The notes beneath the pieces are model-generated. The model was not told the DNA's origin. It did no database searches and saw nothing but the letters and a program-made list of their open reading frames with translations. From Desulfobulbus propionicus DSM 2032 (GTDB lineage Bacteria; Desulfobacterota; Desulfobulbia; Desulfobulbales; Desulfobulbaceae), in assembly GCF_000186885.1 (NCBI RefSeq), contig NC_014972.1:3570001-3602000 (forward strand): a stretch of 32,000 nucleotides of DNA. The letters run 5' to 3'. This document shows positions 2,569 to 32,000 of the stretch, piece by piece (positions within the stretch are counted from its first letter, which is position 1; each line of letters begins with the position of its first letter). The translations under genes were made by a program, and so were the position numbers.

Positions 2569-2584
2569 CACATTGATCATTCTG

Positions 2585-5488: not shown

Positions 5489-5525
5489 GAGTGTTTATGG
5501 GGTTTGTACGTTTTCTTGGAGAAAA

Positions 5526-5624
5526 GGAGATCCCTCACCTGCGTTCGGGATGACATCCGGGAGTTGACCAAGCTGTCTAATGGCCGCGCTTCCTCTGTCA
5601 TGTCGAGCGCAGCGAGAAATCTCC
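5526..5624. repeat. Imperfect inverted repeat (about 29-nt arms, 42-nt spacer) between chlI-like and the ABC-2 genes
   Basis: The left arm is ggagatccctcacctgcgttcgggatgac (5526-5554). The right arm is gtcatgtcgagcgcagcgagaaatctcc (5597-5624). They are mostly complementary, with wobbles and one bulge. On the transcribed (minus) strand TTTTCTCC follows. A related half-copy sits at 30136-30162. Confidence 0.6.
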
Positions 5625-5637
5625 CCGTTCAAAGCCA

Positions 5638-10431: not shown

Positions 10432-10444
<13 letters not shown>
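8720..10444 (-). CDS. TonB-dependent outer-membrane receptor (short, BtuB-size) embedded between cobN and chlD-like
   Basis: Start re-called to ATG 10444 (MERIIRPWACALLTCLGTLLAPGAGSG signal peptide), 13 nt inside the cobN 3' end. It has a TonB-box-like GAIILTAEE and the plug motif IEILRGKGGVRYGQDAGGGVILVTTR. A beta-barrel-like alternating sequence runs to the C-terminus ...MAGVSWRM. Confidence 0.9.
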
Positions 10445-14210
<3,766 letters not shown>

Positions 14211-14211
<1 letters not shown>

Positions 14212-17646: not shown

Positions 17647-18449
17647 GATGTGCGAGCCTCCCGAATCATCATCCAATCAAAGAAATAGAGCACAAGGCCC
17701 AGGGAAAAGAGAACCATACCTGCCAGATAGAGCCCGACCCCCGGATCCTTGCGCACAAAGAGATCGACTCTGGTTTTCATCTTCATTCCACCCTGACTTT
17801 TAGGGAAAAAATTGCGCAGATGCAGGCTGTAGCCCTGAAACCGCACCGGTCGGGTACAACTGAGGATCGCCTCCCGCTTGGTCATGCCATCATCAAGCAG
17901 CAGCCTGACTCGGGCGGTGATGACCTCATCCTCAAGAAAGGCGAGGCGCTTGCCCTGGTAGTACTCGGGTTCAAAGGCGATGAGTTCGACCTGACCCCTC
18001 GTGCCGGGTAAGGAGAGGTGGGTACCCGGCACCAGGGTACTGCCGGTCAGGACGTCGGTGAACAGATAGCTGCACAGATAGCCGGCAAGGATGATGATCA
18101 GGGCGTAGTGCATGATGTGCGGCGCCAGCTTGAGCAGCCCCGGCCATCCACTGCGGCGGACGGCCAGGAGCTGGCGCATGCGGTTGGTGGTACAGACGAA
18201 GGTGTTGGCAGTCAGGACACTGAGCAGCACCAGCAGCAGGAAAAACCAGCTGGTCTGCTCCAGGTTGTGGCTGCCGTAGGTACGCATCCAGGCTGTCAGC
18301 CCCATGTCGTTGAGCGGGACGAACAAAGCGGTGTGCCGCACCAGGCAGAAATACCCCCAGATCAGATCCAGCGTCAAAAGCACGCAGAGGCCAATGGTCA
18401 GGTTGATGCTGGCTAACCCCTGCCAGATGACGGTGCAGATTCCTTTCAT
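17643..18449 (-). CDS. ResB/CcsB-like membrane protein, unusually short
   Basis: 268 aa with about 4 TM segments. A ResB-like periplasmic segment reads ...AILSCTRPVRFQGYSLHLRNFF, and the C-terminal TM is preceded by KDPGVGLYLAGMVLFSLGLVLYFF. The ATG overlaps the ccsA-like stop (ATGA). Confidence 0.75.
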   Translation of the reverse strand: MKGICTVIWQGLASINLTIGLCVLLTLDLIWGYFCLVRHTALFVPLNDMGLTAWMRTYGSHNLEQTSWFFLLLVLLSVLTANTFVCTTNRMRQLLAVRRSGWPGLLKLAPHIMHYALIIILAGYLCSYLFTDVLTGSTLVPGTHLSLPGTRGQVELIAFEPEYYQGKRLAFLEDEVITARVRLLLDDGMTKREAILSCTRPVRFQGYSLHLRNFFPKSQGGMKMKTRVDLFVRKDPGVGLYLAGMVLFSLGLVLYFFDWMMIREARTS

Positions 18450-19231
18450 GGCATCACCAGACCACGAAAGGGGCCAATATCAGGTAGGCAGCTTAAGCAA
18501 AGGACAACCAGGCCACCCAGACCAACGAAGATGGCCCTTGCCTGCTGGCTCCAGGTTTTGCTGAGGTGAAGATGGAGGACGCAGGCATAAAAGAACCAGC
18601 CCGCCATGGTCAGGGTCAGGGCCGGATCCTCCCAGACCACCGGCGTACCCCAGCCCAGATAGCACCAGAGTTCGCCGCAGAACATGGAAGCCGTCCACAG
18701 TCCGAATCCCAGCGCGGCCCAGCGCAGGGACTTATGCAGGGCAACCGTGGGTCGCAGACCATCGATCCACCTGTCGCTCAGGGGCCAGACGCACAGGGCC
18801 CAGGCGGCGCTGATGACACAGCTTGCCTTGGCGAAGAGGGCAAACCAGAGAAACCCATGACTGAGCAGGGTCTTGGACTTGAGAAAGGGCAGATAAAAAT
18901 CCTTGGGGAAAGCGAGAGACGTGACCACCAGAGCAACAAGCAGCGCAAGGACAAGCCGCCAGAGCATGCGCTCGCCCGGCTCTGAGCCGTTGCCGATACA
19001 CAAGGCCAGCAGCCCCAGGCAAAGCGGCAGCGCCACGGCGCCGAGATGCATCGGCAACATCGGCCAGGCCTGGGTATAACGAAGGGCAACAATCACCAGG
19101 TTGCATCCCAGGGCCGGCAGCAGCAGAATCCGCGAAAGGAATACCCACCGCTGCGGCAGGAAGGCGGCCATCAGCGAGGTCAGATAACAGAGTCCGGCGC
19201 AGAGCCATGTTGTCTGGGTCAGGTGGTTCAT
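18446..19231 (-). CDS. CcsA/ResC-family (cytochrome c assembly-type) membrane protein with degenerate WWD motif
   Basis: Start re-called to ATG 19231 (MNHLTQTTW...). The track's 19447 start would run through the riboswitch terminator. 261 aa and polytopic. The WWD-like segment is GELWCYLGWGTPVVWEDPALTLTMAGWFFYACVLHLH, with flanking His residues (SHGFLWF, LHLH). Confidence 0.8.
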   Translation of the reverse strand: MNHLTQTTWLCAGLCYLTSLMAAFLPQRWVFLSRILLLPALGCNLVIVALRYTQAWPMLPMHLGAVALPLCLGLLALCIGNGSEPGERMLWRLVLALLVALVVTSLAFPKDFYLPFLKSKTLLSHGFLWFALFAKASCVISAAWALCVWPLSDRWIDGLRPTVALHKSLRWAALGFGLWTASMFCGELWCYLGWGTPVVWEDPALTLTMAGWFFYACVLHLHLSKTWSQQARAIFVGLGGLVVLCLSCLPDIGPFRGLVMP

Positions 19232-19421
19232 ACTTCTACCCCCGAAATAACGGGGAGATGAAGCGACAGCCTGCGCATGGCGGCAGGACTCCGACAGGGG
19301 TGGAAATGATGAACAGAGATGGGTATGACCTGAAGGTGTTGCATGGCTCCTCGCACACGGGTTCGGTGGTGGAGTCAACAACGGGGAGAAGGGGGCCACG
19401 GCCTGCGGTTGGTGGGCGGGC

Positions 19422-19464
19422 AAAAAAAAATCCCGGATCGAATACAATAAATTCGATCCGGGAT
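19422..19464 (-). terminator. Intrinsic terminator forming the expression platform of riboswitch no.2
   Basis: Minus strand reads ATCCCGGATCGAAT-ttattgt-ATTCGATCCGGGAT followed by T9. That is a perfect 14-bp stem (19430-19443 / 19451-19464) plus a U-run (19422-19430). Confidence 0.8.
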
Positions 19465-19536
19465 AGCCCTATTTATCCGCAGAAATATATCAGATTACCG
19501 GGTACGCCGCCGTCCACGCAGTCGTCTCCAAACATC

Positions 19537-19699
19537 CATTCAGGCAGGTCTTCTGACTTCCGGCTCATCCTACTAACTGCGTCTTCCCAACCCTTCTAGG
19601 GTCAGTGACTTTGGTGCAGCGTTCGTCCCCGGTCACAGCGGCGGGCCCGTCCCCGATTTACGCGGGGTTCCCTCTTGCGTTCTTGCGAACACCTGAATG
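19537..19699 (-). promoter_or_regulatory. Cobalamin (B12) riboswitch aptamer no.2
   Basis: P1 is cattcagg / cctgaatg. The core reads agaGGGAAccccGCGtAAAtCGGggaCGGgCCCGCcGCTGT, GTCACTG and GGGAAG, with B12 box AGTCAGAAGACCTGCC (revcomp of 19543-19558). Confidence 0.9.
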
Positions 19700-19704
19700 T
19701 GCAA

Positions 19705-19735
19705 TGCATAAAACAGATACACCGGGCAAAGTCAA
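19705..19735 (-). promoter_or_regulatory. Candidate sigma70-type promoter for riboswitch no.2 operon
   Basis: Minus strand reads TTGACT (19735-19730), N19, TATGCA (19710-19705), then 6 nt before the P1 strand ATTCAGG. The other two riboswitch cassettes show the same -10/6 nt/ATTC..CAGG layout. The spacer is long, so confidence is low. Confidence 0.3.
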
Positions 19736-20005: not shown

Positions 20006-20917
20006 TTACAAATGGGCCATGGCCACCTTGAGCTGCGCAATCCACATGTCGACAATGGCATCAACCTCACCCAGACCCTTCATCACCGGCACGCTCTCGA
20101 TGCCGGCTTTGGCGAGCTGACTTTTCCAGGAGTCGGGCTCGTCGCCGGCCATGTCGTTCATAGCATGGTCGCCAGCTACGGTCATAAAGGGAATGAGATA
20201 GGCTTTTTTGATCTTCTTGGCCATCAGCATGTCACGGATCTCTTCAAAAGTTGGGTGGCCTTCAACGGTGCCAACATAGAGGTTGGCATCCATCTGCTGC
20301 GCCTTATACATCAGGGCGCTGTACATGGCATCCGTGGGATGATGGGTGCCGTGGCCCATGAACACCACTGCCTCACCCGCCTTGCGCTCCTTGGGCACGA
20401 CCTTCGTGGTGATGATCTTTAGTGCCTGCTCCATGGTCTCGTCGCTGATCAGCAGCGGCAGGGAGACTTTCACCTGCTCGATGCCGCCGACCATCTGACC
20501 AAAAAGGCGGGCATTGGCATTGATCTCATGGAACTCGGCACCGGGGATCATGTGTAATGACTGCACCGCCACCTTGGTGTAGCCTTCGTCCATCAACCGG
20601 GCCAGGGCCATCTCCGGGGAGTCGATCTGCTTGCCCTCTTCTTTGGCCAGCTTTTTGCGGATGATGTTCGAAGTATAGGCCCAGCGCACCTCGGTGCCGG
20701 GGAAGGCTGCCTTGACTCGCTTCTCGATATTGGTAAACGAGGCCTGGGCCTTTTCCACACTGGTGCCGAAGGTCACCAGGAGGATGGCGATTTTATCCTC
20801 TTTTTTCTTACCGTGCTCCATGGCCTTGGCGGTTGCGGCCTGGAAACAGACCGCAACCAAAGCGGCAACGGCTACGGCCATCATTTGTTGTACCAGTCGT
20901 TGAATGTGCATGTTCAT
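20006..20917 (-). CDS. cbiK: Sirohydrochlorin cobaltochelatase CbiK with N-terminal signal peptide (periplasmic CbiK type)
   Basis: Start re-called to ATG 20917 (RBS aaaggagaaaATG). The track's 453-aa ORF is an out-of-frame run through tonB. Signal peptide is MNMHIQRLVQQMMAVAVAALVAVCFQAATAKA. CbiK motifs are ILLVTFGTS, VVFMGHGTHH and PFMTVAGDHA. Confidence 0.9.
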   Translation of the reverse strand: MNMHIQRLVQQMMAVAVAALVAVCFQAATAKAMEHGKKKEDKIAILLVTFGTSVEKAQASFTNIEKRVKAAFPGTEVRWAYTSNIIRKKLAKEEGKQIDSPEMALARLMDEGYTKVAVQSLHMIPGAEFHEINANARLFGQMVGGIEQVKVSLPLLISDETMEQALKIITTKVVPKERKAGEAVVFMGHGTHHPTDAMYSALMYKAQQMDANLYVGTVEGHPTFEEIRDMLMAKKIKKAYLIPFMTVAGDHAMNDMAGDEPDSWKSQLAKAGIESVPVMKGLGEVDAIVDMWIAQLKVAMAHL

Positions 20918-20996
20918 TTTCTCCTTTTCATTGATATAGTCGATGCATCCGTACGTGCCTTGCTCGCTGTACGGCCGCATCATGGGTTGAGTTGGC

Positions 20997-21745
20997 TTAT
21001 CCTTCCAGTTTGAAGGTGATGGTCTGTTCCACCAGGGCTTTGACGGCCACGCCGCCTTTGGTGCCTGGTCGAAATCGCCAACCGGAGATACATCGCAATA
21101 CGGCTTGCTCAAACACTCCTTCTGGATCGGCGTCCAACACAGCGACCTTGTCCACTTGCCCCTGCTCATCGACCACGAATTTGACCTTGATCCAGCCCTC
21201 GATGTTACGGCGCTTGGCGGCTGGAGGATAGACTGGTGGAGCCTTTGCAACCGCAGCCAATGGGCCATCAAGCTGACCGACAGTATAGATGCCGCCCCCA
21301 CCCCCACGTGCGCTTTCTCCCTGGGCGGAGCTCGCGGAGGGAGTTGCCGCCGAGGCCGCAGCGGCACTTACATTACTCGTCGACACCGAGGATGTCGTGC
21401 CTTGAGGTTGCATTTGCGGCGAACTGGCGGCCACCGGGACTGTCTCCACAGGTGTTTTTTGTTCTTCAACAGGTTTCTTTTTACCACAGGTGGTGGCGAC
21501 TTTTTCGCCACCGGCTTGGGCATGTTTTTCTTCTTGACCGGGGCAGGCGCTTTCGAGGCCGGAGGCGAAGCAGGAACAGCTTGCGGTGGTCCAGCCTCTG
21601 GAGGACCTGATGCCTGCAGAATGGAAAAGTCCAAAGCCACCGGTAGGCGTACCGGCGGGGTGTGCTGACTGATGGTCACGGCTGCGAGAAAAAACATCGC
21701 ATGTACGAGCAGGGAAAACTGGGTAGCTTTGATTTGTCGGGTCAT
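20997..21745 (-). pseudogene. tonB: TonB energy transducer, reading frame interrupted by an apparent 1-nt frameshift
   Basis: ORF 21368-21745 encodes the N-terminal TM and Pro/Lys-rich region (...APAPVKKKNMPKPVAKKSPPPVV). ORF 20997-21449, in another frame, encodes the linker and TonB C-terminal domain (...YPPAAKRRNIEGWIKVKFVVDEQGQV...). Adding one A to the A5 run (plus-strand T5 at 21478-21482) joins them as ...PPPVVKKKPVEEQKTPVETVPV.... The total length of 749 nt is not a multiple of 3. Confidence 0.8.
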
Positions 21746-22125
21746 AGCTGCTGTTCGGTTTGCAAACTTAAGGTTGTAAAACCAAGACGTTTGAGTGCCT
21801 CATACACATCGACAAATAACTGGAGGGGAATATCCTTATCTGCACGGAGAATGATTGGAGTGAGCCGATCCGCATCGGCCAGAGTGGCTTCTAATCCCTC
21901 TAAAGGTATTTCCATCGAGTCAACCCAGAGCTTGCCCTCCTTGTTGACGACAAGGGTGCGCGGATGGATCGCGGCCAGTTCTTCGCTGGCCTCGGCCTTG
22001 GGCAGTTCGACCTTAATGCCGCCGGTGGCGATAAAGGTGGAGGTGGTGAGGACGATGGTTAGCAGCACCAGCATTACATCCACCAACGGGATGACATTGA
22101 GATAATCAAACTCCTTTTCGTCCAT
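21742..22125 (-). CDS. exbD: ExbD/TolR-family biopolymer transport protein
   Basis: 127 aa starting MDEKEFDYLNVIPLVDVMLVLLTIVLTT, the typical ExbD N-terminus and TM. ATGA overlap with the tonB start. Confidence 0.9.
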   Translation of the reverse strand: MDEKEFDYLNVIPLVDVMLVLLTIVLTTSTFIATGGIKVELPKAEASEELAAIHPRTLVVNKEGKLWVDSMEIPLEGLEATLADADRLTPIILRADKDIPLQLFVDVYEALKRLGFTTLSLQTEQQL

Positions 22126-22537
22126 GGCAGATATCCCATTGCATCAGCAGCACCTTGCAGCGGCGCAGCAGCAGGTTGTAGAGAGTGACCGCTGGGATGG
22201 CCACCAGCAGTCCCAAAGCCGTGGCTTTCAGCGCCAGGGCTAGGCCGGTCATGATTTTGGTGGTGTCGAAACCAGCCGCGCCGATGTCGTAAAAGGTGAG
22301 CATGATGCCCAGTACCGTGCCCAGCAGGCCGATATAGGGGGCGTTGGCGCCGATGGTGGCAATCAGGTGCAACTTATGGGAGAGGTGCAACTCCAGCACC
22401 TTCCGATCCGCGTACTGCTCGACACGCACTGCGCGATACACCAGCCAGCGTTCCATCGCCAGGGCCAGGGCTACCACACTCATGAAGAGCAGCAATCCAA
22501 GAATCCCATAATCAATCAAATTGTGAAGATATTCCAT
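22106..22537 (-). CDS. exbB: ExbB (MotA/TolQ/ExbB proton-channel family)
   Basis: Start re-called to ATG 22537 (RBS gggaggagtctcATG). 143 aa with 3 TM segments and the signature PYIGLLGTVLGIM. Confidence 0.9.
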   Translation of the reverse strand: MEYLHNLIDYGILGLLLFMSVVALALAMERWLVYRAVRVEQYADRKVLELHLSHKLHLIATIGANAPYIGLLGTVLGIMLTFYDIGAAGFDTTKIMTGLALALKATALGLLVAIPAVTLYNLLLRRCKVLLMQWDICHGRKGV

Positions 22538-22763: not shown

Positions 22764-22806
22764 AAAAAAAAATCCCGGATCGAATACAAAAAATTCGATC
22801 CGGGAT
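22764..22806 (-). terminator. Intrinsic terminator forming the expression platform of riboswitch no.3
   Basis: Minus strand reads ATCCCGGATCGAAT-tttttgt-ATTCGATCCGGGAT followed by T9. The stem is identical to the terminator at 19422-19464. Confidence 0.8.
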
Positions 22807-22878
22807 AGCCCTATTTATCCGCAGAAATATATCAGGTACCGGGGTACGCCGCCGTCCACGCAGTCGTCTCCAAACATC

Positions 22879-23044
22879 CATTCAGGCAGGTCTTCTGGCT
22901 TCCGGCTCATCCTACTGACTGCGTCTTCCCGACCTTTTCTCAAGGTCAGTGACTTAAGGTGCAGCGTTCGTCCCCGGTCACAGCGGCGGGCCCGTCCCCG
23001 AATCGCACGGGGTTCCCTCTTGTGTTCTTGCGAACACCTGAATG
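22879..23044 (-). promoter_or_regulatory. Cobalamin (B12) riboswitch aptamer no.3 (near-duplicate of no.2)
   Basis: It has the same P1 (cattcagg/cctgaatg) and the same core as no.2. The B12 box is AGCCAGAAGACCTGCC. GTCACTG and CCCGCcGCTGT are present. Confidence 0.9.
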
Positions 23045-23049
23045 CTGGA

Positions 23050-23080
23050 AGGATAGAAACTATAGCTCCTAAAATGTCAA
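23050..23080 (-). promoter_or_regulatory. Candidate promoter for riboswitch no.3 / exbB operon
   Basis: Minus strand reads TTGACA (23080-23075), N19, TATCCT (23055-23050), then 6 nt before ATTCAGG. It is bracketed by a 9-bp inverted repeat, GGATAGAAA (23051-23059) / TTTCTATCC (23090-23098). Confidence 0.3.
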
Positions 23081-23258: not shown

Positions 23259-23286
23259 TTGACTTTCACTGCAAACCGTCTAAACA
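23259..23286 (+). promoter_or_regulatory. Candidate promoter for riboswitch no.4 / plus-strand operon
   Basis: TTGACT (23259-23264), N16, TAAACA (23281-23286), then 6 nt before the P1 strand ATTCTCAGG at 23293. Confidence 0.4.
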
Positions 23287-23292
23287 CAGCCC

Positions 23293-23456
23293 ATTCTCAG
23301 GCGCTCGCAAGAGCTTAATAGGGAACTCCGTGTGAATCGGAGACAGGCCCGCTGCTGTATTCGGGGACGACCGCTGCATTTTGAGTCACTGACCTTGTTG
23401 TCGGGAAGACGCAGCCAGTAGGATGATCCGTGAGTCAGAAGACCTGCCTTGAGAAT
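23293..23456 (+). promoter_or_regulatory. Cobalamin (B12) riboswitch aptamer no.4
   Basis: P1 is attctcagg / ccttgagaat. The core reads aatAGGGAActccGTGtgAAtCGGagaCAGgCCCGCtGCTGT, GTCACTG and GGGAAGA, with B12 box AGTCAGAAGACCTGCC (23434-23449). Confidence 0.88.
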
Positions 23457-23516
23457 TGAGCGAATGCTTCGTGGACGGAGGCGCGCTCGCACCATATCCA
23501 CGGATAAAAAAGGGAC

Positions 23517-23561
23517 ATCCCGGATCGAATACTTTGAGTTTTCGATCCGGGATTTTTTTTT
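23517..23561 (+). terminator. Intrinsic terminator forming the expression platform of riboswitch no.4
   Basis: ATCCCGGATCGAA-tactttgagtt-TTCGATCCGGGAT followed by T9. The stem sequence matches the two minus-strand terminators. Confidence 0.8.
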
Positions 23562-23606
23562 GCCGAACCCACCTATGAAAGTGCAGGTGTCACGCAGGAG
23601 GATGGT

Positions 23607-24029
23607 ATGCAACGATGTTTCGCTGTTCTGATCGCTTTCCTGTTCGTTGTTTTTACATCCCCCCAGGCATCTGCGGTGGCCGCCACGACTGAAGACGCCG
23701 CCATTACTGCCAGCAGCTGGCTCACGCTCGTCGATGGTGGCTATTACGTGCAGAGTTGGCAAACTGCCTCCCGATTTTTTCGTTCTGCCATTGCCGAGGC
23801 CACCTGGGCCGCCTCCCTGCAAGCAGCACGTTCGCCCTTGGGCAGCCTGGTCCGCCGCGAACAACGCGCAAGCCAACTGGCGACCAGCCTACCCGGCGCA
23901 CCTGACGGCGAGTATTGCATCCTCAGTTTTGCCACCGAATTGACCAACAAAAAAACCGCCGTCGAAACCCTGACCATGATGCGTGAAGCAGACGGTCAAT
24001 GGCGGGTTGCCGGCTACTTCATCAAGTAG
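23607..24029 (+). CDS. Exported small protein, DUF4019-like
   Basis: 140 aa, RBS aggaggatggtATG, signal peptide MQRCFAVLIAFLFVVFTSPQASA. The body (SWQTASRFF...ATWAASLQAARSPLG...LPGAPDGEYCILSF...GQWRVAGYFIK) matches my recollection of the DUF4019 family. Confidence 0.75.
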   Translation: MQRCFAVLIAFLFVVFTSPQASAVAATTEDAAITASSWLTLVDGGYYVQSWQTASRFFRSAIAEATWAASLQAARSPLGSLVRREQRASQLATSLPGAPDGEYCILSFATELTNKKTAVETLTMMREADGQWRVAGYFIK

Positions 24030-24056
24030 ACAGCTCAATCTTTCCAGGAGAACGCC

Positions 24057-26099
24057 ATGCGCCCCCTTGCTTTGTTCACCCATGTCCTGCTTGTGCTGCT
24101 GTTGTGTGCAGTTGCGGTCTGCGACACCCAGGCTGGCCAATATCCGCATGCCTTCAAGGATAGCCTCGGCCGCGAGGTATCCCTGACCAGCCCGCCGCAG
24201 CGAGTGGTCTGCCTGCTCAGCTCGGTGACCGATCTGCTCTTTGAGCTGGATCGCACTGAGTTCCTGGTGGGGTTGAGCCGCCAGGACTTGCTCAATCACA
24301 GCGCCTTGCGGGTACCGAGCATGGGCAGCTTTTTCCAGCCCGATCTGGCAGCGATCTCGAACGCCAAACCGGATCTGATCATTGCCTCCACCTCGCAGCA
24401 GGCCATGCTGCAGCCGTGGTTGGATGATCCGCAGCAGCACACCAAGGTGCTCTTTTTCCGGGAAGGCTCGCTTGAGGAAGGCTTTGCCCGCATGGCCCAG
24501 ATCGGTACCCTGGTGGAACGCGAACAACAGGCGCAGGCCATCATCAATCGCAACCGCGAGCAGATCGGGCTGGTGCAGGCCCGTCTCAAACAGATGCCGC
24601 CGGAGCAGCGCAAACGGGTGGCTCGGGTGGTGGCCGGAAATGATGGTATCTCATGCCCCGGCGATGATTCCTTCCAAAACGAGATGATCGCCGCTGCCGG
24701 TGGCATCGCGCCGCAATGGGCCAAGAACGGTGGTTTTGTGGAGGTGGATGTAACCAGCTGGCAGGCCTTTAACCCGCAAATGATTTACGGCTGCGATCGC
24801 AACATGGAGGCGGTCCACAAGATGCTTGCCCAAGAAGGGTGGAAAGAGGTCGAAGCGGTGCGCAACCGGGCCATCACCCAGCTGCCCTGCTCCATCGCCT
24901 GCCAGGTGACGCCCCATGTGGGGGCCGCAGTGCAGTGGCTGGCAGCCTCCTTCTATCCGGAACTGATGGCCGATGTCGCCAAGGCGGTCAGCAACAATAC
25001 GGTGCAAGGCGAGCGGCCACTCAACCTTGATCTGCCCTATGTGGCCTCCGCCAAAGTGGTCAATCACCGGGTCAACGATGCCGACTTCAAATCCCTGGTG
25101 CTCCGCTTCACCACCCCCCAGACGGTACTCTCCACCACCGAAGGCAATGCGCAGGCCGTGCAGGCGGTGGGCAATACCTCCGTGCCCATGCATGCCAGCC
25201 TTGGCCACATGGCCTTTGGTGTCGAGCAGGTACGCAAGGATGTGGCCGCCAACCTCGGCTATACGCCGGCCACCTACACCGGCATGATGACCGGCGCCGA
25301 CATGGACAACCTCTCAATGCAGGTGCGGCGCGAGGGTGATCTGGAGGCCGTAGCCCTGGTGACCGCCGGAACGCGCGGTAACGCTCAACGGATGTCAAAG
25401 GATGTTGGCTATGCCCACGCCTCGGGCACCATCAACATCCTCCTGCTCACCAACCGCACACTCGCATCCGAGGCCATGGCCCGGGTCATCATCACCGCCA
25501 CCGAGGCCAAGACCGCCGCTCTCTTGGATCTCGATATCCGCAGCACCGCACTGCCCTGGCCCTACCCGGCCACCGGCACCGGTACGGACTCGATGATCGT
25601 GGTCCAGGGTGAAGGCCCCTTGGTCCGTTACACCGGCGGCCACGCCAAGATCGGCGAGTTGATCGCCAAGGCGGTCCACGCCGGGGTGACCGAGGCTCTC
25701 ATCGGCCAAAACGGCATCAAGGCCGGACGAAACGTCTTGCAACGACTCGATGAACGCAAACTGAGTTTGGAGCGACTGGTGCAACTCTACCCCTCCACCC
25801 TGCCGCCCCAGGAACTGGAACGCAGGCTGGAGCGAGCCCTGGAGGAGCCGGCCATTGCCGGCTTCATCGAAACCGCCCTGGCCATCAGCGATGCGTCTGG
25901 CAGCGGCCAGATTGCCAATTTGACCGCCTTTGAGCGGATGTGTTCCGCCATGAGCGAGCAGCTGACCGGCACCACCACCCTTGTCCCGGCAACTATCAAC
26001 ACCCCGGATCTCCTGCCACCGGTCATGGCCAGGGTCTTTGGCCTGCTGGTGGCCGGGTTGAGCACAGGTCCTACCACTTCCAAGGAGTCCCAACCATGA
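24057..26099 (+). CDS. Fusion protein: signal peptide + BtuF-like periplasmic binding domain + CbiZ adenosylcobinamide amidohydrolase domain
   Basis: 680 aa with N-terminal MRPLALFTHVLLVLLLCAVAVCDTQAG. Residues ~30-300 are class III binding protein-like (RVVCLLSSVTDLLFELD, NAKPDLIIAS). Residues ~330-590 carry the CbiZ motifs GTINILLLTN, IITATEAKTAALLDL, ATGTGTDSMIVV and GGHAKIGELIA. A ~90-aa helical tail follows. The stop overlaps the next ATG (ATGA). Confidence 0.85.
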   Translation: MRPLALFTHVLLVLLLCAVAVCDTQAGQYPHAFKDSLGREVSLTSPPQRVVCLLSSVTDLLFELDRTEFLVGLSRQDLLNHSALRVPSMGSFFQPDLAAISNAKPDLIIASTSQQAMLQPWLDDPQQHTKVLFFREGSLEEGFARMAQIGTLVEREQQAQAIINRNREQIGLVQARLKQMPPEQRKRVARVVAGNDGISCPGDDSFQNEMIAAAGGIAPQWAKNGGFVEVDVTSWQAFNPQMIYGCDRNMEAVHKMLAQEGWKEVEAVRNRAITQLPCSIACQVTPHVGAAVQWLAASFYPELMADVAKAVSNNTVQGERPLNLDLPYVASAKVVNHRVNDADFKSLVLRFTTPQTVLSTTEGNAQAVQAVGNTSVPMHASLGHMAFGVEQVRKDVAANLGYTPATYTGMMTGADMDNLSMQVRREGDLEAVALVTAGTRGNAQRMSKDVGYAHASGTINILLLTNRTLASEAMARVIITATEAKTAALLDLDIRSTALPWPYPATGTGTDSMIVVQGEGPLVRYTGGHAKIGELIAKAVHAGVTEALIGQNGIKAGRNVLQRLDERKLSLERLVQLYPSTLPPQELERRLERALEEPAIAGFIETALAISDASGSGQIANLTAFERMCSAMSEQLTGTTTLVPATINTPDLLPPVMARVFGLLVAGLSTGPTTSKESQP

Positions 26100-29000
26100 A
26101 CCGCCTTTGTCTGCTCGTGCTGCTCCTGCTCGGTTGGGTGCAGTCGGCCCCGGCAATGCCCACCGCCAAGGTGGCTATCCTCGAAATCGATATCAACGGC
26201 TATCAGTTGCAGCAGGCTATTGGAGCCCTTGAACTGCCGCCCGCCATCGAAACCCGATTCTTCACCCTGGAGGACCTGGAGCACGATCCTCGTGCCAAGG
26301 ACTTTGTGCGCGAATCCTCGGTGGTCTTGGTCAACGTCATGGCCAACCAACTGGCCAGCTACATGATCGATCAACAACTGCTGACCGGCCGCGCGGTCTA
26401 TGGCCTCAACCAGGCCAGCAACCCCGAAGAACTCACCAAGAAAGGTTTTGTGTTTGACCGCGAAATCATGGCCTATTACCGCCACATGAGCCTGGCCAAT
26501 ATGGTCAACCTGGTACGACTGGCCGCACACCGCCACATCGACCAGGCCATCAGCTATCAACCGGTCGAGATCCTGCCCGAAATCTGCCTCCATCATCCCG
26601 ATGCACCGCGCACCTTCACCACGGTTGCTGACTACCTCGCCTGGGACCGGCAGCGGCCGGGATACCAGGCCGACCGGCCCCGGGTGGCCATCCTCGAATA
26701 CAACAACAGCCTCAAGGTGGGCCAGGTGGAGGCGGTGGACAAACTCATCCGCCGCCTGGAGGCTGGTGGCCTTGCCGTACTGCCCTGCTTCGGGTCGCTG
26801 CAGCAAACCCTGACCCAATACCTCCAGCCCATTGACGGCAAGCCGCCGGTGGATCTGGTGCTGGCCTTTACCCTCAAGTTCGCCTCAGCTCTCAACGAGG
26901 AGGTTCGGATTGCCCTGGAGCGGCTGAATGTACCACTGTTCAACGTCATCTCCACCTATGCCGAGACCGTGGATGAGTGGCGGCAGAGCCCTGTGGGGAT
27001 CAGTCCGATGGCCTCTGCCTGGGCCGTGGCTACGCCCGAGTTTTCCGGCGCCATTGAGCCGACGGTGCTGCTGGGCAAGCAGCAACTGGTCGATCCGCTC
27101 AGTGGCCGCAAGCTCTATGTGAGCGAGACCGTGGATGAAGCGATCGATTTTCTCATCCCCCGGCTGCACAACTGGGCCGCCCTGCAACGCATGGCCAACC
27201 CCGACAAAAAGGTGGCTATCCTCTACTACAACCACAGTCAAGGTAAGCAGAACATCGCCGCCGCCTACCTCAACGTCTTCCGCAGCCTGCAAACCATCCT
27301 TGCCCGCATGCAGGCCGAGGGCTACCGCATCGACAAGCCCGAACGACTGAACGAGGAACAGATTCAACAACTGGTGCTGGCCAGCGGCCGCAACATCGGC
27401 TCCTGGGCGCCGGGCGAACTCGACAACCTGCTGGCCTCCGGCGGGGTGGAGCAGGTGAGCATCGAGGAGTACACCACCTGGTTTGAACGGTTGCCCGGAG
27501 CCTTCAAAAAACCGGTGATCGCCCAATGGGGCCAGCCCAAGGACTGCGCCATCATGACCAGAGACGGAAAGCTGGTCTTCCCCATGGTCAAGCTGGGCAA
27601 CGTGGTGCTGCTGCCGGAACCGGCGCGCGGTTGGTCCGATGATCCGATGAAGCTCTACCACGATACCACCCTCTACCCGCACCACCAGTACATTGCCGCC
27701 TATTTGTGGCTCAAGGAAAAATTCCACGCCGACGCCATGATCCACCTCGGCACCCATGCCACCTACGAATGGCTGCCGGGCAAGCAAGCCGGGCTGGCGC
27801 CCTCGGACCCGCCGGAGATCATGGTCGGTACCATCCCTAACATCTACCCCTACATCGTTGACGATGTCGGCGAGGGGGTGCAGGCCAAGCGGCGCGGCCG
27901 GGGGGTAATCGTCGACCACCTCACCCCGCCGATGAAGGAGGCCGACCTGCACCATGAATACAAGCAGCTGGGTGATCTCTTCAAGCAGTATGAGACGGCC
28001 CGCACCGTTGGCAGCGAAACCGTGCCTGAGTATCGGAACAAGATCGGCCAACTGGTGGAGAAGATGGGCATTGCCAAGGATCTGCGCCTGACCACCATGG
28101 ATGAGGCAGCCATGGAAAAAATCCATCTCTACCTCCACGAGATCGACGACAACTCGCTGCCCTTTGGCCTGCACACCTTTGGCAAGGCCTACGCCGAGGA
28201 TGCCACCGCCTCGACCATTGAGCTCATTCAAAAGCAAAATCCCCAGGCCGATGACGACAAGATTCGCAAGGACCTGGAGGGCTCGCCCCTGCGGGAGATG
28301 AACAACCTCATCCGCGGCTTGAACGGCGAATATGTGCCGCCGGGCGAGGGCAACGATCCGCTGCGCAACCTGGCCGCCATCCCCACGGGCAAGAACTTTT
28401 ACGGATTTTCCCCGGCCAAGGTGCCATCCAAGGCGGCCTGGGCCGTGGGCAAACGTGCTGCCGAGGAGATGATCCGCGCCAAACAGGAGAAGGAGGGCCA
28501 CTATCCGGAAAAGGTGGGCGTGGTGCTCTGGGCCACCGAGACCACTCGCAACGAGGGGGTGCATGAGGCGACCATCCTCTGGTTGATGGGGGTGGAGCCG
28601 GTTTGGGATGCAAGCGACCGGGTCACCGGCAGTCGGGTGGTGCCCGGCCGGGAACTGGGACGGCCGCGCATCGACGTGCTGATCAATCCCTCCGGCTTGT
28701 ATCGCGACATGTATCCGGAAAAGCTGTTGTTCCTCGACGAGGCGGTGCAGCAGGCCCTGGCCCAGACCGATATTGAAAACTTCCTCGCCCGCAACCAGGT
28801 GACGATCAAAAAAGCCCTGCTGGCCAAGGGCATGAGTGAGCAGGAGGCCGATGAGCAGTCGCGCTTTCGCATCTTCACCGAAGCGGTCGGTTCCTATGGC
28901 AACGGGGTCGAGGAGATGGCCGGCGCCTCCGGGCTCTGGGATTCGGATGAGTCGATAAGCAACATCTACCTCAACCGGGTGCAGTTCGCCGTCGGCCGGG

Positions 29001-30067
29001 GCAAGTGGGCCGTGCCGGTGAAGGAGACCTTCACCGAGAACCTGCGCGGTGTGGACACCGCTGTGCATTCTCGTTCCAGCAATGTCATCGGCATCATCGA
29101 TACCGACGATTTCTTCATGTACCTGGGCGGCATGTCGCTGGCGGTGAAGAATGTGCGCGGTCAGGCCCCGGACACCCTGGTCACCATGCACCGCAAGAAG
29201 GATGAGCTGGGAGTGGAGGACGTGGCCAAGACCATCGGCATGGAGATGCGCACCCGCTACCTCAACCCCCAGTGGATCGAGGGCATGAAGCGCGAGAATT
29301 ACGGCGGCGCTCGGCAGATGGCCGACTTTGCCGAAAATCTCTGGGGCTGGCAGGTAACGGTGCGTGACGCGGTCGGCGCCGACAAGTGGCAGCAGATTTT
29401 CGAGGTCTACGTGGAGGATAAGTACGGCCAGGGCTTGGCCGAATTTTTCGATAAGCACAACCCCTGGGCCTACCAGTCGATGACCGCACGTATGCTGGAG
29501 GCGGTGCGAAAGGGCTACTGGCAGGCGGACGAACAGGTGACCAAAAAACTGGCCGCCGAGTATGCCACCAACGTCATCCAGCGCGGCGTGGCCTGCTGCG
29601 ATCATACCTGCAACAACCCCATGCTCAACCAGATGGTGGTCAACCTCATCTCCATGCCCGGCGTGCTCAGCCCGCAGATGGTGGAACAGTTCAAACTGGC
29701 CATCGAGCAGATGGCCAAGAAAAGTTTAGAGCAGCAGACCGCCGAACGGGCGGAACTGATCACCAGATTGAACGAGGTTCCGGCCGGGGAGCAAAAGCAG
29801 CAGGCGACCGAACCGCCACCGCAGCAACAGCCTGAGCAGACGAAGTCCAACCAGGAGATGCAACAACCCGAGCCGGTGCCGGAGAAGGAGGCCAAGGCGA
29901 CCGAAGACGGCAAGGCCCCGGAAAACGTCCAGGGCTACAAGATGGAGGAGATTAAAACCAAGGATGAATCCACCGAGCTGAGTTCCTCGGGTATCCAATG
30001 GGCGGCGAGTCTGTTTGTGCTGGTGGTGCTGGCGCTGTTTGTGTGGGGCTCGCGGCGGAGATGGTGA
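26096..30067 (+). CDS. CobN/Mg-chelatase-family protein, exported form with signal peptide and C-terminal membrane anchor (HmuS-like architecture)
   Basis: Start re-called to ATG 26096 (MNRLCLLVLLLLGWVQSAPA/MPTAK). 1323 aa. CobN motifs are HLGTHATYEWLPGK, NIYPYIVDDVGEGVQAKRR and DHLTP. The C-terminus has a P/Q/E/K-rich linker, then SSSGIQWAASLFVLVVLALFVWGSRRRW (TM helix plus Arg cluster) at the extreme end. Confidence 0.9.
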   Translation: MNRLCLLVLLLLGWVQSAPAMPTAKVAILEIDINGYQLQQAIGALELPPAIETRFFTLEDLEHDPRAKDFVRESSVVLVNVMANQLASYMIDQQLLTGRAVYGLNQASNPEELTKKGFVFDREIMAYYRHMSLANMVNLVRLAAHRHIDQAISYQPVEILPEICLHHPDAPRTFTTVADYLAWDRQRPGYQADRPRVAILEYNNSLKVGQVEAVDKLIRRLEAGGLAVLPCFGSLQQTLTQYLQPIDGKPPVDLVLAFTLKFASALNEEVRIALERLNVPLFNVISTYAETVDEWRQSPVGISPMASAWAVATPEFSGAIEPTVLLGKQQLVDPLSGRKLYVSETVDEAIDFLIPRLHNWAALQRMANPDKKVAILYYNHSQGKQNIAAAYLNVFRSLQTILARMQAEGYRIDKPERLNEEQIQQLVLASGRNIGSWAPGELDNLLASGGVEQVSIEEYTTWFERLPGAFKKPVIAQWGQPKDCAIMTRDGKLVFPMVKLGNVVLLPEPARGWSDDPMKLYHDTTLYPHHQYIAAYLWLKEKFHADAMIHLGTHATYEWLPGKQAGLAPSDPPEIMVGTIPNIYPYIVDDVGEGVQAKRRGRGVIVDHLTPPMKEADLHHEYKQLGDLFKQYETARTVGSETVPEYRNKIGQLVEKMGIAKDLRLTTMDEAAMEKIHLYLHEIDDNSLPFGLHTFGKAYAEDATASTIELIQKQNPQADDDKIRKDLEGSPLREMNNLIRGLNGEYVPPGEGNDPLRNLAAIPTGKNFYGFSPAKVPSKAAWAVGKRAAEEMIRAKQEKEGHYPEKVGVVLWATETTRNEGVHEATILWLMGVEPVWDASDRVTGSRVVPGRELGRPRIDVLINPSGLYRDMYPEKLLFLDEAVQQALAQTDIENFLARNQVTIKKALLAKGMSEQEADEQSRFRIFTEAVGSYGNGVEEMAGASGLWDSDESISNIYLNRVQFAVGRGKWAVPVKETFTENLRGVDTAVHSRSSNVIGIIDTDDFFMYLGGMSLAVKNVRGQAPDTLVTMHRKKDELGVEDVAKTIGMEMRTRYLNPQWIEGMKRENYGGARQMADFAENLWGWQVTVRDAVGADKWQQIFEVYVEDKYGQGLAEFFDKHNPWAYQSMTARMLEAVRKGYWQADEQVTKKLAAEYATNVIQRGVACCDHTCNNPMLNQMVVNLISMPGVLSPQMVEQFKLAIEQMAKKSLEQQTAERAELITRLNEVPAGEQKQQATEPPPQQQPEQTKSNQEMQQPEPVPEKEAKATEDGKAPENVQGYKMEEIKTKDESTELSSSGIQWAASLFVLVVLALFVWGSRRRW

Positions 30068-30135
30068 GGTGGTCACTGCAAAGGAGCGATGACACCGGGG
30101 TGGTTCGTGCTTGGGGAAAGAATACCCAGCTCCCG

Positions 30136-30162
30136 GTCATTTCGACCAAAGGGAGAAATCTC
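30136..30162. repeat. Half-copy of the gtcat..tcga....gagaaatctc repeat seen at 5597-5624
   Basis: gtcatttcgaccaaagggagaaatctc versus gtcatgtcgagcgcagcgagaaatctc. About 20 of 27 positions are shared by eye, and it is intergenic. Confidence 0.4.
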
Positions 30163-30361
30163 TGTACTCCGGCATCACAGCGGTGGGCAGGCATACTGCC
30201 GCCTGCGCCACCCTACGAGATCGATCATGCACGTTTTGATCGTTCCCATACTGGAGCGTAGAAAACAAACCCTGATTTCTGCGCCTCTGCGGGAGAACAA
30301 AAATGATCACCATACAGAGTTCAACAGCCTTGTTTTGCAACCCTAGAAAAGGAGAACCACA

Positions 30362-31108
30362 ATGCTCTACAAATCGCTGATTCTAGGTGTGCTCTTCAGT
30401 ATCGGTATCTTTGCCGGCAAAAGCGGCATTGGCCTGGCCTATCTGCTTGGGCGCACGCCATCCTGGCGAGGCAAGGCCCTGCGTCTGCTTGGTTTTGCCC
30501 TGCTCTACGCCCTGGTGTTCGCATTGGCGGCCTGGGGCCTGCGCCTCCTTGATCCCCTGGCGCACCTGGGGACTATCCAGCGTTTCCTGCAGTCCGGAAT
30601 GCAGGCGCACCTATTGATGGCCGGGGTGATGATTGCCTGGGGGCTGGCCTTGCTGCGCAAACCCCATCAGCACGGCAGCGCCAGTCGCGGCTGGCTGCTT
30701 TTGACCCTGCCCTGTCCGGTCTGCGCCACGGTGATCGTCTTCAGCCTCGCCTTTGGCCTGTCACTCTTTCCCGACCACTTTTCCCAGGTGGCCGGCGGTC
30801 TCTACCTGGCCTTTCTTGTTATCAGCCTGATGGTGATGGGCTTGATGCTGGGGTTGGGTAAAATGACCGCGCAGTCTGCGGAAACCCTGCTCGGCGGGGC
30901 CATGGTGCTGCTCGGTACCTACTTCCTGCTCTCCATGGCCATCCTCCCCCAATTCACCGATGTCGATGCGATCTACCGCATGGCCCATCACCAGGTTCCC
31001 GGTCAACAGCAGGATCTGCGTGCCCTGCTGCCGCTGGTAGTCCTCACTTTATCAACCTTTCTGGCCGGTTTTGGCCGTACCCACCAAAAAATACGGAGTT
31101 CGCACTAA
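30362..31108 (+). CDS. Polytopic membrane protein with intramembrane CPVC motif (DUF2162-like predicted transporter)
   Basis: 248 aa, RBS aaaaggagaaccacaATG, about 7 hydrophobic segments, LLTLPCPVCATVIVF within a TM. The family name comes from recollection of CobN-linked DUF2162 genes and needs HMM confirmation. Confidence 0.6.
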   Translation: MLYKSLILGVLFSIGIFAGKSGIGLAYLLGRTPSWRGKALRLLGFALLYALVFALAAWGLRLLDPLAHLGTIQRFLQSGMQAHLLMAGVMIAWGLALLRKPHQHGSASRGWLLLTLPCPVCATVIVFSLAFGLSLFPDHFSQVAGGLYLAFLVISLMVMGLMLGLGKMTAQSAETLLGGAMVLLGTYFLLSMAILPQFTDVDAIYRMAHHQVPGQQQDLRALLPLVVLTLSTFLAGFGRTHQKIRSSH

Positions 31109-31713
31109 TGGATATCGGCGCCCTGCTGCAAACCTTCATCTACCTGGTTTCCTCCTCCCTGCTCTACCCGGTATTGCTGGCACTCAGCCTGCTGGTGCTG
31201 GTGGTCATCGTCCAGGCCGGTGGTTTCTTTGCCGAGTGGCTGGAACGGGCACGGCTCAAACCCTGCCCTTCCCAGAACCTGCCCCGGCTCTTGCAAACCG
31301 GCCAGGCCCAGGGGATGATCTCGCACCGGGTCAACCACTACTTAAAGATCCTCACCGAGATCCGCGACCAGCCGGGAAATCATGGTATCGCCGTGGAAAA
31401 CCTGCTGCAATCCACCACCCTGGAGTTGTGGAAATCCATGGACCGGCTGCGCATCCTGGTGCGCACCGGCCCGTCGCTTGGCCTACTCGGCACCCTCATC
31501 CCCATGGGCACCGGCCTGGCCTCCCTGGGTCAGGGCGACATGACCAAGCTCAGTTCAGATCTGGTCATCGCCTTCACCACCACCGTGGTCGGCATGGCGG
31601 TGGGTACGGTGGCCTTCTGTTTCTACACCCTGCGCCGCCGTTGGCTGGAAGAGGATATCAAAAACATGGAACTGGCCACCGAACTGCTGCTCAATGGGCC
31701 GGTGGAGCACTGA
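31108..31713 (+). CDS. MotA/TolQ/ExbB-family proton-channel protein (non-canonical, CobN-associated)
   Basis: 201 aa. The TAATG overlap links it to the previous gene. It has an N-terminal TM plus a C-terminal pair with the signature GPSLGLLGTLIPMGTGL and VIAFTTTVVGMAVGTVAF. Confidence 0.8.
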   Translation: MDIGALLQTFIYLVSSSLLYPVLLALSLLVLVVIVQAGGFFAEWLERARLKPCPSQNLPRLLQTGQAQGMISHRVNHYLKILTEIRDQPGNHGIAVENLLQSTTLELWKSMDRLRILVRTGPSLGLLGTLIPMGTGLASLGQGDMTKLSSDLVIAFTTTVVGMAVGTVAFCFYTLRRRWLEEDIKNMELATELLLNGPVEH

Positions 31714-31714
31714 G

Positions 31715-32000
31715 ATGCACTACTTCCGCCCGCGCAGAACGAGCAAATCCCGCAAGGGTTTCAGCGACCCGGCCTTCCGTGACGACGATCCCATGACCGG
31801 AGTGGCCAACCTCTTTGACATTGGCCTGGTGTTCATTGTCGGCCTGCTACTGACCCTGTTCAACGCCTACCGGCTCCAGGATCTGTTCGACAGCAAATCG
31901 GAGATGACCATCATGAAACAGCAGGCCTCGGGCGAGATGGAGATCATCGTCAAGAAAGGCACCGAAATCAAGGCCTCGCGTGTCACCCAAGAGGCGGCCC
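31715..32000 (+). CDS. Small single-TM protein (DUF2149/ExbD-like partner), truncated by the window end
   Basis: ATG at 31715 lies 1 nt after the previous stop and the frame is open to 32000. Translation is MHYFRPRRTSKSRKGFSDPAFRDDDPMTGVANLFDIGLVFIVGLLLTLF.... The ANLFDIGLVF plus TM segment resembles the ExbD/DUF2149 N-terminus. It is not in the ORF track because there is no stop. Confidence 0.55.
   Translation, partial: MHYFRPRRTSKSRKGFSDPAFRDDDPMTGVANLFDIGLVFIVGLLLTLFNAYRLQDLFDSKSEMTIMKQQASGEMEIIVKKGTEIKASRVTQEAA

Follow-up and report, generated by a model that had tools for sequence, protein, structure and literature searches.

A cobalamin-riboswitch operon of Desulfobulbus propionicus pairs a predicted exported CobN-like protein with an Hmu-type membrane trio: a candidate corrinoid or cobalt salvage module

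What would a CobN-like protein act on, and what would drive it, if it stood outside the cytoplasm, away from the AAA+ motors and the adenosine triphosphate (ATP) that serve class I chelatases? The question is raised by the last six genes of a 32,000-nt stretch of Desulfobulbus propionicus DSM 2032 DNA (contig NC_014972.1, positions 3,570,001 to 3,602,000; "the window" hereafter), which follow a cobalamin riboswitch and encode a DUF4019 protein, a fusion of a binding protein with CbiZ, the CobN-like protein, and three membrane proteins of the DUF2162, MotA/ExbB and DUF2149 families (the trio). A sequence-only reading of this DNA had proposed that the trio powers an extracytoplasmic, corrinoid-processing CobN-like enzyme; its six domain calls are borne out by Pfam, and its six co-directional genes have the junctions it described. 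Our analysis indicates that the operon is probably an exported corrinoid or cobalt salvage module in which the CobN-like gene and the trio act together as a four-gene unit. The fuller reading, of an HmuS/BtuS-type operon, repressed by B12, that salvages tetrapyrroles outside the cytoplasm and forms the cobalt/corrinoid counterpart of hmuRSTUV, with the trio coupled to the CobN-like protein in some form, falls just short of an even chance in our estimate.

The riboswitch ahead of gene 1 matches Rfam family RF00174 over model positions 1-189 with 103 bits, against a gathering score of 31.5, and reaches 188.7 bits with a model rebuilt from the four copies in the window (Table 1). Located 52 bases 3' of it, a 13-bp stem (ATCCCGGATCGAA/TTCGATCCGGGAT) with nine U behind it belongs to a region that folds with -47.1 kcal/mol (z = -3.66); a consensus terminator scan missed this hairpin because its loop spans 11 nt, and picked up the near-identical one of the divergent riboswitch at 22772-22806(-). 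Of the promoter-riboswitch-terminator unit recognized earlier, the riboswitch and the terminator thus stand, while the promoter is not confirmed, as just a TTGACT at 23260 and a poor -10 precede the riboswitch and the region failed a consensus scan. As read from its sequence, the riboswitch-terminator unit would clearly permit transcription when adenosylcobalamin is low. The six same-strand genes behind it are joined, in order, by 27 nt, a 4-nt overlap, 294 nt, a 1-nt overlap and 1 nt. Beyond the window, on the identical contig (locus L001 of our survey), the DUF2149 protein is completed at 131 aa and its stop codon is overlapped by the gene of a 640-aa TonB-dependent receptor, so that the operon extends past the window end. 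The best NCBIfam match of this receptor is the TonB-B12 family, though under the cut-off. The nearest proteins are those of Desulfobulbus and further Desulfobacterota.

Export and topology were called throughout from hydrophobicity heuristics, not SignalP. Genes 1 to 3 have signal-like N-termini ending in small residues, that of gene 1 (DUF4019) at ASA/VA. The gene 3 protein carries its signal-like segment at residues 4-22 and, after a linker (1221-1292), a transmembrane helix (1298-1316) followed by RRRW; this predicted C-terminal helix with its RRRW tail puts most of the protein outside the cytoplasm. The same layout recurs among CobN-like homologues, with a signal-like N-terminus in 59/62 and a C-terminal helix with a basic tail in 61/62. 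In gene 2, a Peripla_BP_2 domain (residues 50-277, 74 bits) is followed by a full-length CbiZ (PF01955, residues 350-544, profile positions 1-191 of 191, 159 bits), and the sole transmembrane-like segment is residues 4-22. All 47 homologous binding-protein–CbiZ fusions examined have a signal-like N-terminus, and 43 of the 47 have no later hydrophobic segment. Because class III binding domains are extracytoplasmic and no membrane crossing separates the binding domain from CbiZ, we firmly infer that the CbiZ domain of the fusion sits outside the cytoplasm. The window's other CobN and other CbiZ carry neither an export signal nor a C-terminal anchor. That the CobN-like protein and CbiZ lie outside the cytoplasm, as the sequence-only reading had it, is therefore upheld by the signal-like N-termini and the C-terminal anchor, and is kept in homologues. 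A search of the PDB by sequence returned no CbiZ structure, and the DUF4019 protein has no relative with a solved structure.

What kind of protein is gene 3? Among solved structures it is closest to HmuS (9d26, 548 bits), ahead of CobN (429 bits) and ChlH (418 bits), and it stays under all nine NCBIfam cut-offs for CobN and BchH (for example 631 against 822 for TIGR02257, which the window's other CobN passes with 979). H554 and E593 of gene 3 align without gaps with H554 and E593 of CobN (9uk9_A), and D1004 falls on D1100 by offset; these CobN residues form a putative active site at two bound Co2+ (preprint 10.64898/2026.07.21.739949). At least 90% of the clade keep H554, E593, D1004 and related motifs. 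The features that define HmuS are a Met-rich insertion, Met-79/His-254 and His-538/His-1209 (PMC12583661), and of those that fall in aligned regions only His-538 has a conserved equivalent in gene 3, namely H554. His-1209 is not kept: it aligns with Asp1005, within a DTDD where HmuS reads SLDH, and DxDD recurs in 90% or more of the clade. The HGR of HmuS residues 254-256 aligns with A-S-A, with no His at that position across the clade, and the region of Met-79 does not align. The Met-rich insertion (about HmuS 695-922) is absent, the alignment jumping from 694 to 923 across gene 3 residues 708-723, and the matching segment measures 30-31 residues in Desulfobacterota members. Gene 3 also carries a CCDHTCNNP motif at residues 1166-1174 (window 29591-29617) that is near-invariant in the Desulfobacterota clade; HmuS reads CSGFVCDN at this position, and CobN alignments stop before it. 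It may serve the exported protein as a site for metal, a disulfide or redox chemistry. Mean conservation across the CobN-like clade is 0.63 for the C-terminal helix and 0.59-0.68 for the catalytic core, compared with 0.26 for the signal peptide and 0.29 for the ~70-residue linker. We thus rejected an assignment as HmuS, since the Met-rich insertion, His-254 and His-1209 are all missing, as well as one as CobN, given the extracytoplasmic location and the failed NCBIfam cut-offs. On these sequence features, gene 3 is best filed with BtuS, as a likely sister of HmuS with a CobN-type metal site. In one homologue of the collection (P0081), a single gene call of 1926 aa contains both TonB-dependent receptor domains (Plug and barrel) and a CobN-like domain, probably through read-through or a frameshift.

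To place the operon among related loci, an alignment of DUF2149 was used to scan one genome per species; of the 162 hits, the best 80 were kept as loci and annotated by phmmer with the window's proteins and by a riboswitch model from the window's four copies. The gene set recurs in dozens of species with its order shuffled, which speaks for selection on the set and not on one inherited arrangement. Across the 59 loci of at least 12 kb, a MotA-like gene is present in all 59, a CobN-like gene in 58, a TonB-dependent receptor in 51, DUF2162 in 46 (an undercount by phmmer), the binding-protein–CbiZ fusion in 37, a same-strand cobalamin riboswitch in 36, cbiK in 21 and DUF4019 in 3. Genes for btuFCD adjoin several modules, and Desulfosarcina species are among the carriers; a DUF2162 recorded for Desulfobulbus propionicus is 79% identical to gene 4. 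Where present, cbiK closes the module, and a signal peptide is missing from 21 of the 27 CbiK proteins linked to it, which makes these cytoplasmic Co2+ consumers; an exported CbiK as a core periplasmic partner was rejected on the same count. Two details mentioned in the sequence-only reading lost their importance. DUF4019 occurs in just 3 of the 80 loci, so we rejected it as a core component, and gene 1 is a lineage-specific accessory. The 294-nt gap was likewise discarded as a feature, as this junction varies between -11 and 651 nt among relatives and its sequence is not conserved; here it matches nothing in Rfam at E <= 1 and shows neither a terminator nor a promoter consensus. Four loci (L024, L053, L047 and L029) have two CobN-like genes for a single trio, and L024 and L053 also have two fusions. 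A Sphingobacterium locus (L078, 7011-15337) has, in this order, a receptor, MotA-like, DUF2149 and CobN-like genes and a pyridine-nucleotide disulfide oxidoreductase, and has neither DUF2162 nor a riboswitch; enzymes of the HmuS type need a reductant, and the oxidoreductase could be its source.

Cobalt or corrinoids are suggested as the substrate by the riboswitch, by CbiZ in its fused form and by the many cases in which cbiK ends the module, and the corrinoid link drawn earlier from riboswitch and CbiZ is strengthened by its recurrence across species. The operon defines a large, coherent clade within sulfate reducers, with these three unambiguous B12/cobalt markers. Alternatively, the substrate could be haem or another metalloporphyrin, with B12 control being indirect (sparing shared tetrapyrrole precursors) or specificity being relaxed. 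The nearest solved relative of gene 3 is, after all, the haem dechelatase HmuS; BtuS1 and BtuS2 of B. fragilis affect the use of haem iron (PMC6460266), and B12-box structures are said to be present in the P. gingivalis hmu operon (PMC11681262). The binding domain of gene 2 and one receptor also resemble haem or iron proteins. For the former, solved relatives at E <= 0.001 bind iron or haem with no BtuF among them; the earlier label "BtuF" is doubtful, and the N-terminal part of gene 2 is, judged by its similarities, better called a generic class III substrate-binding domain. The latter, a receptor at 157-2259(-) behind a B12 riboswitch, has its best NCBIfam match in a haem/haemoglobin receptor family (246 bits, below cut-off), with the B12 family ranking lower. 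A haem substrate is nonetheless hard to reconcile with the loss of all three HmuS-defining features (Met-rich insertion, His-254 and His-1209), the lack of hmuY, and the full-length CbiZ fusions and riboswitches counted above; moreover, riboswitch-bearing operons have been set apart from haem use (PMC10100974). We consider haem or another metalloporphyrin quite unlikely.

Metal-free corrinoids occur in some anaerobic phototrophs but are seldom met in nature, and sulfidic habitats offer little free Co2+. These circumstances bear on a forward reaction, in which the CobN-like protein would insert Co2+, exported or scavenged, into imported metal-free corrinoids, the proton gradient replacing ATP. 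Such a reaction would make use of the CobN-type active site that gene 3 has kept, and insertion is the energy-requiring step of class I chelatases (PMC12583661; preprint 10.64898/2026.07.21.739949). Apart from the scarcity of both reactants, the window already encodes a cytoplasmic CobN/ChlI/ChlD, and the sole characterised exported homologue runs in reverse, which together make this direction very improbable.

The trio itself combines familiar and unfamiliar elements. The DUF2162 protein (gene 4) has seven helices in the inner membrane and a PCPVC motif, and PCPxC is found in 60/61 DUF2162 homologues, the archaeal one included. By the positive-inside rule, the motif would lie in the cytoplasmic half of helix 4, and soft ligands placed in this way inside the membrane are reminiscent of the CPC site in heavy-metal pumps; alternatively, the motif may have a redox role. 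No solved structure matches this fold significantly, the AlphaFold2 model having a mean predicted local distance difference test score (pLDDT) of 81. In the MotA-like protein (gene 5), the LGLxGT and TTT helix motifs are kept in 76 homologues and align with the window's ExbB and that of E. coli, while an acidic residue in helix 3 (ExbB E176) was rejected as a shared feature, as it is not conserved. The DUF2149 protein (gene 6) has an Asp35 in its single transmembrane helix that is invariant in 26 and in 38 aligned sequences and present in the archaeal homologue too, in an [LF]xD[IV]xLV context like that of ExbD, and the part predicted to face the periplasm is small and all-beta (AlphaFold2, pLDDT 69). 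Two loci hold unusual gene calls, each a true fusion or an assembly artefact: in Caldimicrobium (L079, 8800-9987), DUF2162 and MotA-like form one 395-aa open reading frame (ORF), and in L018 (5213-9394) the CobN-like ORF continues into the C-terminal part of DUF2162.

Does this trio drive the CobN-like protein, or does it serve the receptors? Five observations speak for its belonging with the CobN-like protein. An archaeon, Methanocalculus, encodes DUF2162, MotA-like, DUF2149 and CobN-like proteins with overlapping stops and starts and without a TonB-dependent receptor; the cluster keeps the PCPxC, the membrane Asp and the C-terminal anchor, and the persistence of this quartet in the absence of an outer membrane argues for the four genes as a unit. 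Trio loci include a CobN-like gene more often than a receptor. A separate riboswitch-controlled exbB-exbD-tonB already sits next door. In the CobN-like protein, conservation of the anchor helix matches that of the catalytic core, and the order of anchor helix, variable linker and globular body is reminiscent of TonB. Finally, the Caldimicrobium ORF, by fusing DUF2162 to MotA-like, argues for the trio genes as a unit. Biochemically, purified HmuS stalls after 1-2 turnovers without HmuTUV, and membranes are far more active (PMC12583661). In a competing reading, which is the current view of HmuTUV in Bacteroidota, MotA-like and DUF2149 would form an extra ExbB/ExbD-type energiser for the co-encoded receptors and DUF2162 would import the tetrapyrrole or metal, leaving the CobN-like protein to work alone with a reductant. 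Receptors are present in 51 of the 59 trio loci and one directly follows DUF2149 here, HmuU and HmuV have been assigned to powering HmuR (PMC10100974, PMC12583661) and HmuTUV to inner-membrane transport (PMC12094164, PMC13227078), haem is converted by HmuS with reduced nicotinamide adenine dinucleotide (NADH) alone (PMC12583661), and the Pfam label of DUF2162 is "predicted transporter". This reading leaves the receptor-free archaeal quartet, the higher count of CobN-like genes, the existing exbB-exbD-tonB and the conserved anchor helix unaccounted for; in addition, the operon has no TonB gene, and DUF2149 is not detectably an ExbD. We judge an extra energiser somewhat unlikely. Coupling of MotA-like/DUF2149 proton flow to the CobN-like protein, that is, a trio replacing ChlI/ChlD, is itself a tentative proposal, possible but on the doubtful side of even.

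If the operon is indeed a corrinoid or cobalt salvage module, its parts could be arranged in a chain that mirrors Hmu, in which haem yields Fe2+ and protoporphyrin. The receptor would import a cobalt tetrapyrrole, energised by the neighbouring canonical exbB-exbD-tonB, and the binding-protein–CbiZ fusion would capture it and cut off the lower-ligand arm, which would free an axial position of the cobalt and turn varied cobamides into one intermediate. The CobN-like protein, with its CobN-type His/Glu/Asp site, would then perform metal chemistry on the macrocycle, most likely Co2+ removal by analogy with HmuS; this would take an input of energy and reductant, and the Co2+ would enter the cell to feed CbiK. 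MotA-like and DUF2149 would couple proton flow to this chemistry by way of the conserved helix at the C-terminus of the CobN-like protein, standing in for the AAA+ motor, while DUF2162 would pass metal or electrons across the membrane. Cobalt removal specifically, argued from HmuS, is a doubtful step. The complete version, in which a stator-like MotA-like/DUF2149/DUF2162 complex grips the chelatase helix and powers cobalt removal after stripping by CbiZ, with Co2+ passing via PCPVC to a cytoplasmic CbiK, appears improbable as a whole. Were it true, it would represent the first enzymatic demetalation of a corrin and the first chelatase-family enzyme running on a proton gradient and not on an AAA+ ATPase, and the same proton-driven principle would extend to HmuS and the archaeal homologues.

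Several considerations, in addition to the haem- and iron-like binding domain and the predicted haem-receptor likeness described above, weigh against the salvage reading or parts of it. To our knowledge, no enzyme is known to take cobalt out of a corrin, in which the metal is bound very inertly. The CbiZ enzymes characterised so far need, or at least prefer, adenosylated substrates, and adenosylation consumes ATP, so that such substrates would be difficult to provide in the periplasm. Because DUF2149 served as the seed of the survey, it is silent on CobN-like genes without the trio, and the archaeal case consists of one locus and a literature table. The window's DUF2149 and ExbD align with a probability of 0.3% over 14 columns in hhalign, and a Foldseek search of the PDB with the DUF2149 model gave no match at E <= 0.001 (best E 0.13, no ExbD/TolR/MotB); the ExbD similarity claimed for the B. 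thetaiotaomicron counterpart (PMC10100974) was thus not reproduced for the window's DUF2149. Purified HmuS does turn over without HmuTUV, if only 1-2 times, and this limited in-vitro activity needs NADH (PMC12583661). Since use of haem iron in B. fragilis requires FeoAB (PMC6460266), DUF2162 is not an obvious metal importer. Lastly, cbiK of Desulfovibrio is co-regulated with B12 transport without such a machine (PMC545781), so that the presence of cbiK may only mark membership in the regulon.

CobN is known to bind its corrinoid substrate tightly. The CobN-like protein might accordingly be a tight periplasmic corrinoid binder or chaperone without metal chemistry, on which the membrane complex pulls so that the ligand passes to the fusion and an ATP-binding cassette (ABC) importer. 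HmuS has been proposed to hand haem from HmuR to HmuTUV (PMC13227078), and its head and neck domains, in which a haem is bound, are similar to periplasmic binding proteins (PMC12583661); an anchor helix, a long variable linker and a globular body recall TonB in reverse, and btuFCD genes lie next to several modules. A mere binder leaves the near-invariance of H554, E593, D1004 and CCDHTCNNP hard to explain without catalysis or metal binding, and the haem ligands of the HmuS head domain are not conserved here. We therefore regard a chaperone as unlikely.

Taken together, an exported corrinoid or cobalt salvage module remains the preferred account of this operon, and several consequences follow. 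The 2025 HmuS study considers most bacterial and archaeal CobN/ChlH/HmuS homologues to be without an assignable function, and the present clade provides one large group of them with B12/cobalt markers. It shows that the four-gene core is not haem-specific, contrary to the use of HmuT and HmuV as diagnostic of haem transport (PMC10100974), and, as predicted from the gene content of the one archaeal locus, that this core is independent of an outer membrane. Corrinoids may be processed in the periplasm before import, a step absent from current models of B12 salvage. The operon also offers a concrete place to ask whether proton flow replaces ATP for a class I chelatase. As free cobalt is scarce in sulfidic sediments, recovery of cobalt or of the corrinoid skeleton would matter for B12 cross-feeding.

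In all, the 32 kb contain four cobalamin riboswitches (Table 1). The divergent riboswitch 22868-23056(-), which scores 110.7 bits with RF00174, governs the exbB-exbD-tonB-cbiK unit; it and the riboswitch of the six-gene operon (22868/23283) stand back to back as close paralogues with near-identical terminator hairpins (22772-22806 and 23517-23562). The tonB of this unit is spread over two overlapping frames, 20997-21745(-), either by a frameshift error or by a real disruption. A third riboswitch, on the minus strand, heads a 17-kb operon that encodes CcsA-/ResB-like proteins, a BtuFCD-type binding protein, permease and ATPase, CobN, a receptor, ChlD, ChlI, an ABC-2 exporter pair and a stand-alone CbiZ; its CobN and its CbiZ have no export signal. 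As export signals differ in this way, the organism holds a cytoplasmic set (CobN, ChlI, ChlD and CbiZ) alongside the exported one. CcsA-/ResB-like proteins are normally tied to haem export for cytochrome c, and the host, an anaerobe, also has CbiK.

Table 1. Elements and genes of the window, with positions counted from its first nucleotide.
Feature	Position	Strand	Basis
Cobalamin riboswitch aptamer	23283..23465	+	RF00174
Intrinsic terminator, riboswitch expression platform	23517..23562	+	read from sequence, fold
Gene 1, DUF4019, 140 aa	23607..24029	+	Pfam PF13211, 122 bits
Gene 2, Peripla_BP_2 + CbiZ fusion, 680 aa	24057..26099	+	Pfam
Gene 3, CobN-Mg_chel, 1323 aa	26096..30067	+	PF02514, 1052 bits
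Spacer, 294 nt, without recognisable element	30068..30361	+	
Gene 4, DUF2162 (HmuT-like)	30362..31108	+	PF09930, 125 bits
Gene 5, MotA_ExbB (HmuU-like)	31108..31713	+	PF01618, 46 bits vs cut-off 22.9
Gene 6, DUF2149 (HmuV-like), cut at window end	31715..32000	+	PF09919, 69.6 bits
Divergent cobalamin riboswitch	22868-23056	-	Rfam
Terminator of divergent riboswitch	22772-22806	-	
exbB-exbD-tonB-cbiK unit, controlled by 22868-23056 riboswitch	20006..22537	-	
ExbB	22106-22537	-	Pfam MotA_ExbB
ExbD	21742-22125	-	Pfam ExbD
TonB helix + Pro-rich part	21368-21745	-	
TonB C-terminal domain	20997-21449	-	TIGR01352, 58 bits
CbiK with signal peptide MNMHIQRLVQQMMAVAVAALVAVCFQAATAKA	20006-20917	-	Pfam CbiK; start codons of the unit and signal read from sequence
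Cobalamin riboswitch	19526-19711	-	Rfam
17-kb operon	2585-19447	-	
CobN of 17-kb operon	10432-14247		
Stand-alone CbiZ of 17-kb operon	2585-3808		
Cobalamin riboswitch	2377-2580	-	Rfam

Much of the framework into which this operon falls is already described, namely the Hmu system with its order of genes, the export topology (known for HmuS and BtuS1/2; PMC6460266, PMC13227078), the B12-regulated BtuS, and riboswitch-bearing Hmu-like operons in B. fragilis. The sequence-only reading had accordingly overstated its novelty: B12-regulated CobN-like proteins distinct from CobN and ChlH were proposed as BtuS in 2003 (Rodionov et al., as cited in PMC6460266), and the cobalamin riboswitch of the Hmu-like BtuS1 operon of B. 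fragilis was noted in 2023 (PMC10100974). In the literature searched, we found no account of the exported binding-protein–CbiZ fusion, of a wide Desulfobacterota module with cbiK, of the CobN-type active site of this clade or of the trio belonging to a chelatase-like protein, and nothing explicit on chelatases driven by protons, dechelation of corrinoids in the periplasm or CbiZ proteins that are exported; a paper on nickel in cable bacteria likewise had nothing of relevance.

Among known systems, the closest is hmuYRSTUV of B. thetaiotaomicron and P. gingivalis, in which HmuS is a membrane-bound, periplasm-facing haem dechelatase (PMC12583661); the resemblance to hmuSTUV drawn in the sequence-only reading is supported (PMC11681262), and the two share the four-gene core and a TonB-dependent receptor. 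The window operon differs in being under a cobalamin riboswitch and not under iron or haem control, in having no HmuY, in a gene 3 without the Met-rich insertion and with HGR replaced by A-S-A and His-1209 by Asp as in CobN, in the added exported binding-protein–CbiZ fusion, and in a host from the Desulfobacterota instead of the Bacteroidota. With BtuS, as far as it is described in the citing work, gene 3 has in common that it is a CobN paralogue, neither CobN nor ChlH, behind a B12 riboswitch near receptor genes, and predicted to be periplasmic and membrane-anchored. The BtuS cases covered in the works cited here are from Bacteroidota and studied for haem iron only, with no exported CbiZ fusion or cbiK linkage reported in them. 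CobNST and ChlHID share with gene 3 the fold family of the large subunit and the putative metal ligands (H554, E593 and D1100 of CobN), whereas gene 3 is exported, hence has no AAA+ motor or ATP, and adds a linker, a membrane helix and CCDHTCNNP; the window's ChlI/ChlD genes are in the other operon, with the cytoplasmic CobN. Compared with ExbB-ExbD-TonB, TolQR and MotAB, gene 5 is a MotA_ExbB member and gene 6 a small single-pass protein with a membrane Asp, while DUF2149 has no detectable ExbD/TolR/MotB similarity, no TonB or TolA gene is present, and DUF2162 is a third partner. Lobo et al. reportedly described in 2008 a periplasmic CbiK (CbiK-P) of Desulfovibrio vulgaris; the window's CbiK resembles it in its signal peptide and in its B12-riboswitch control together with TonB-system genes, whereas most module-linked CbiK proteins elsewhere have no such peptide. 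Finally, the CbiZ-based salvage of cobinamide and cobamides linked to btuFCD in archaea and Rhodobacter sphaeroides has full-length CbiZ, corrinoid transport and B12 riboswitches in common with this operon, in which CbiZ is instead fused behind a signal peptide and a binding domain, away from ATP-dependent adenosylation.

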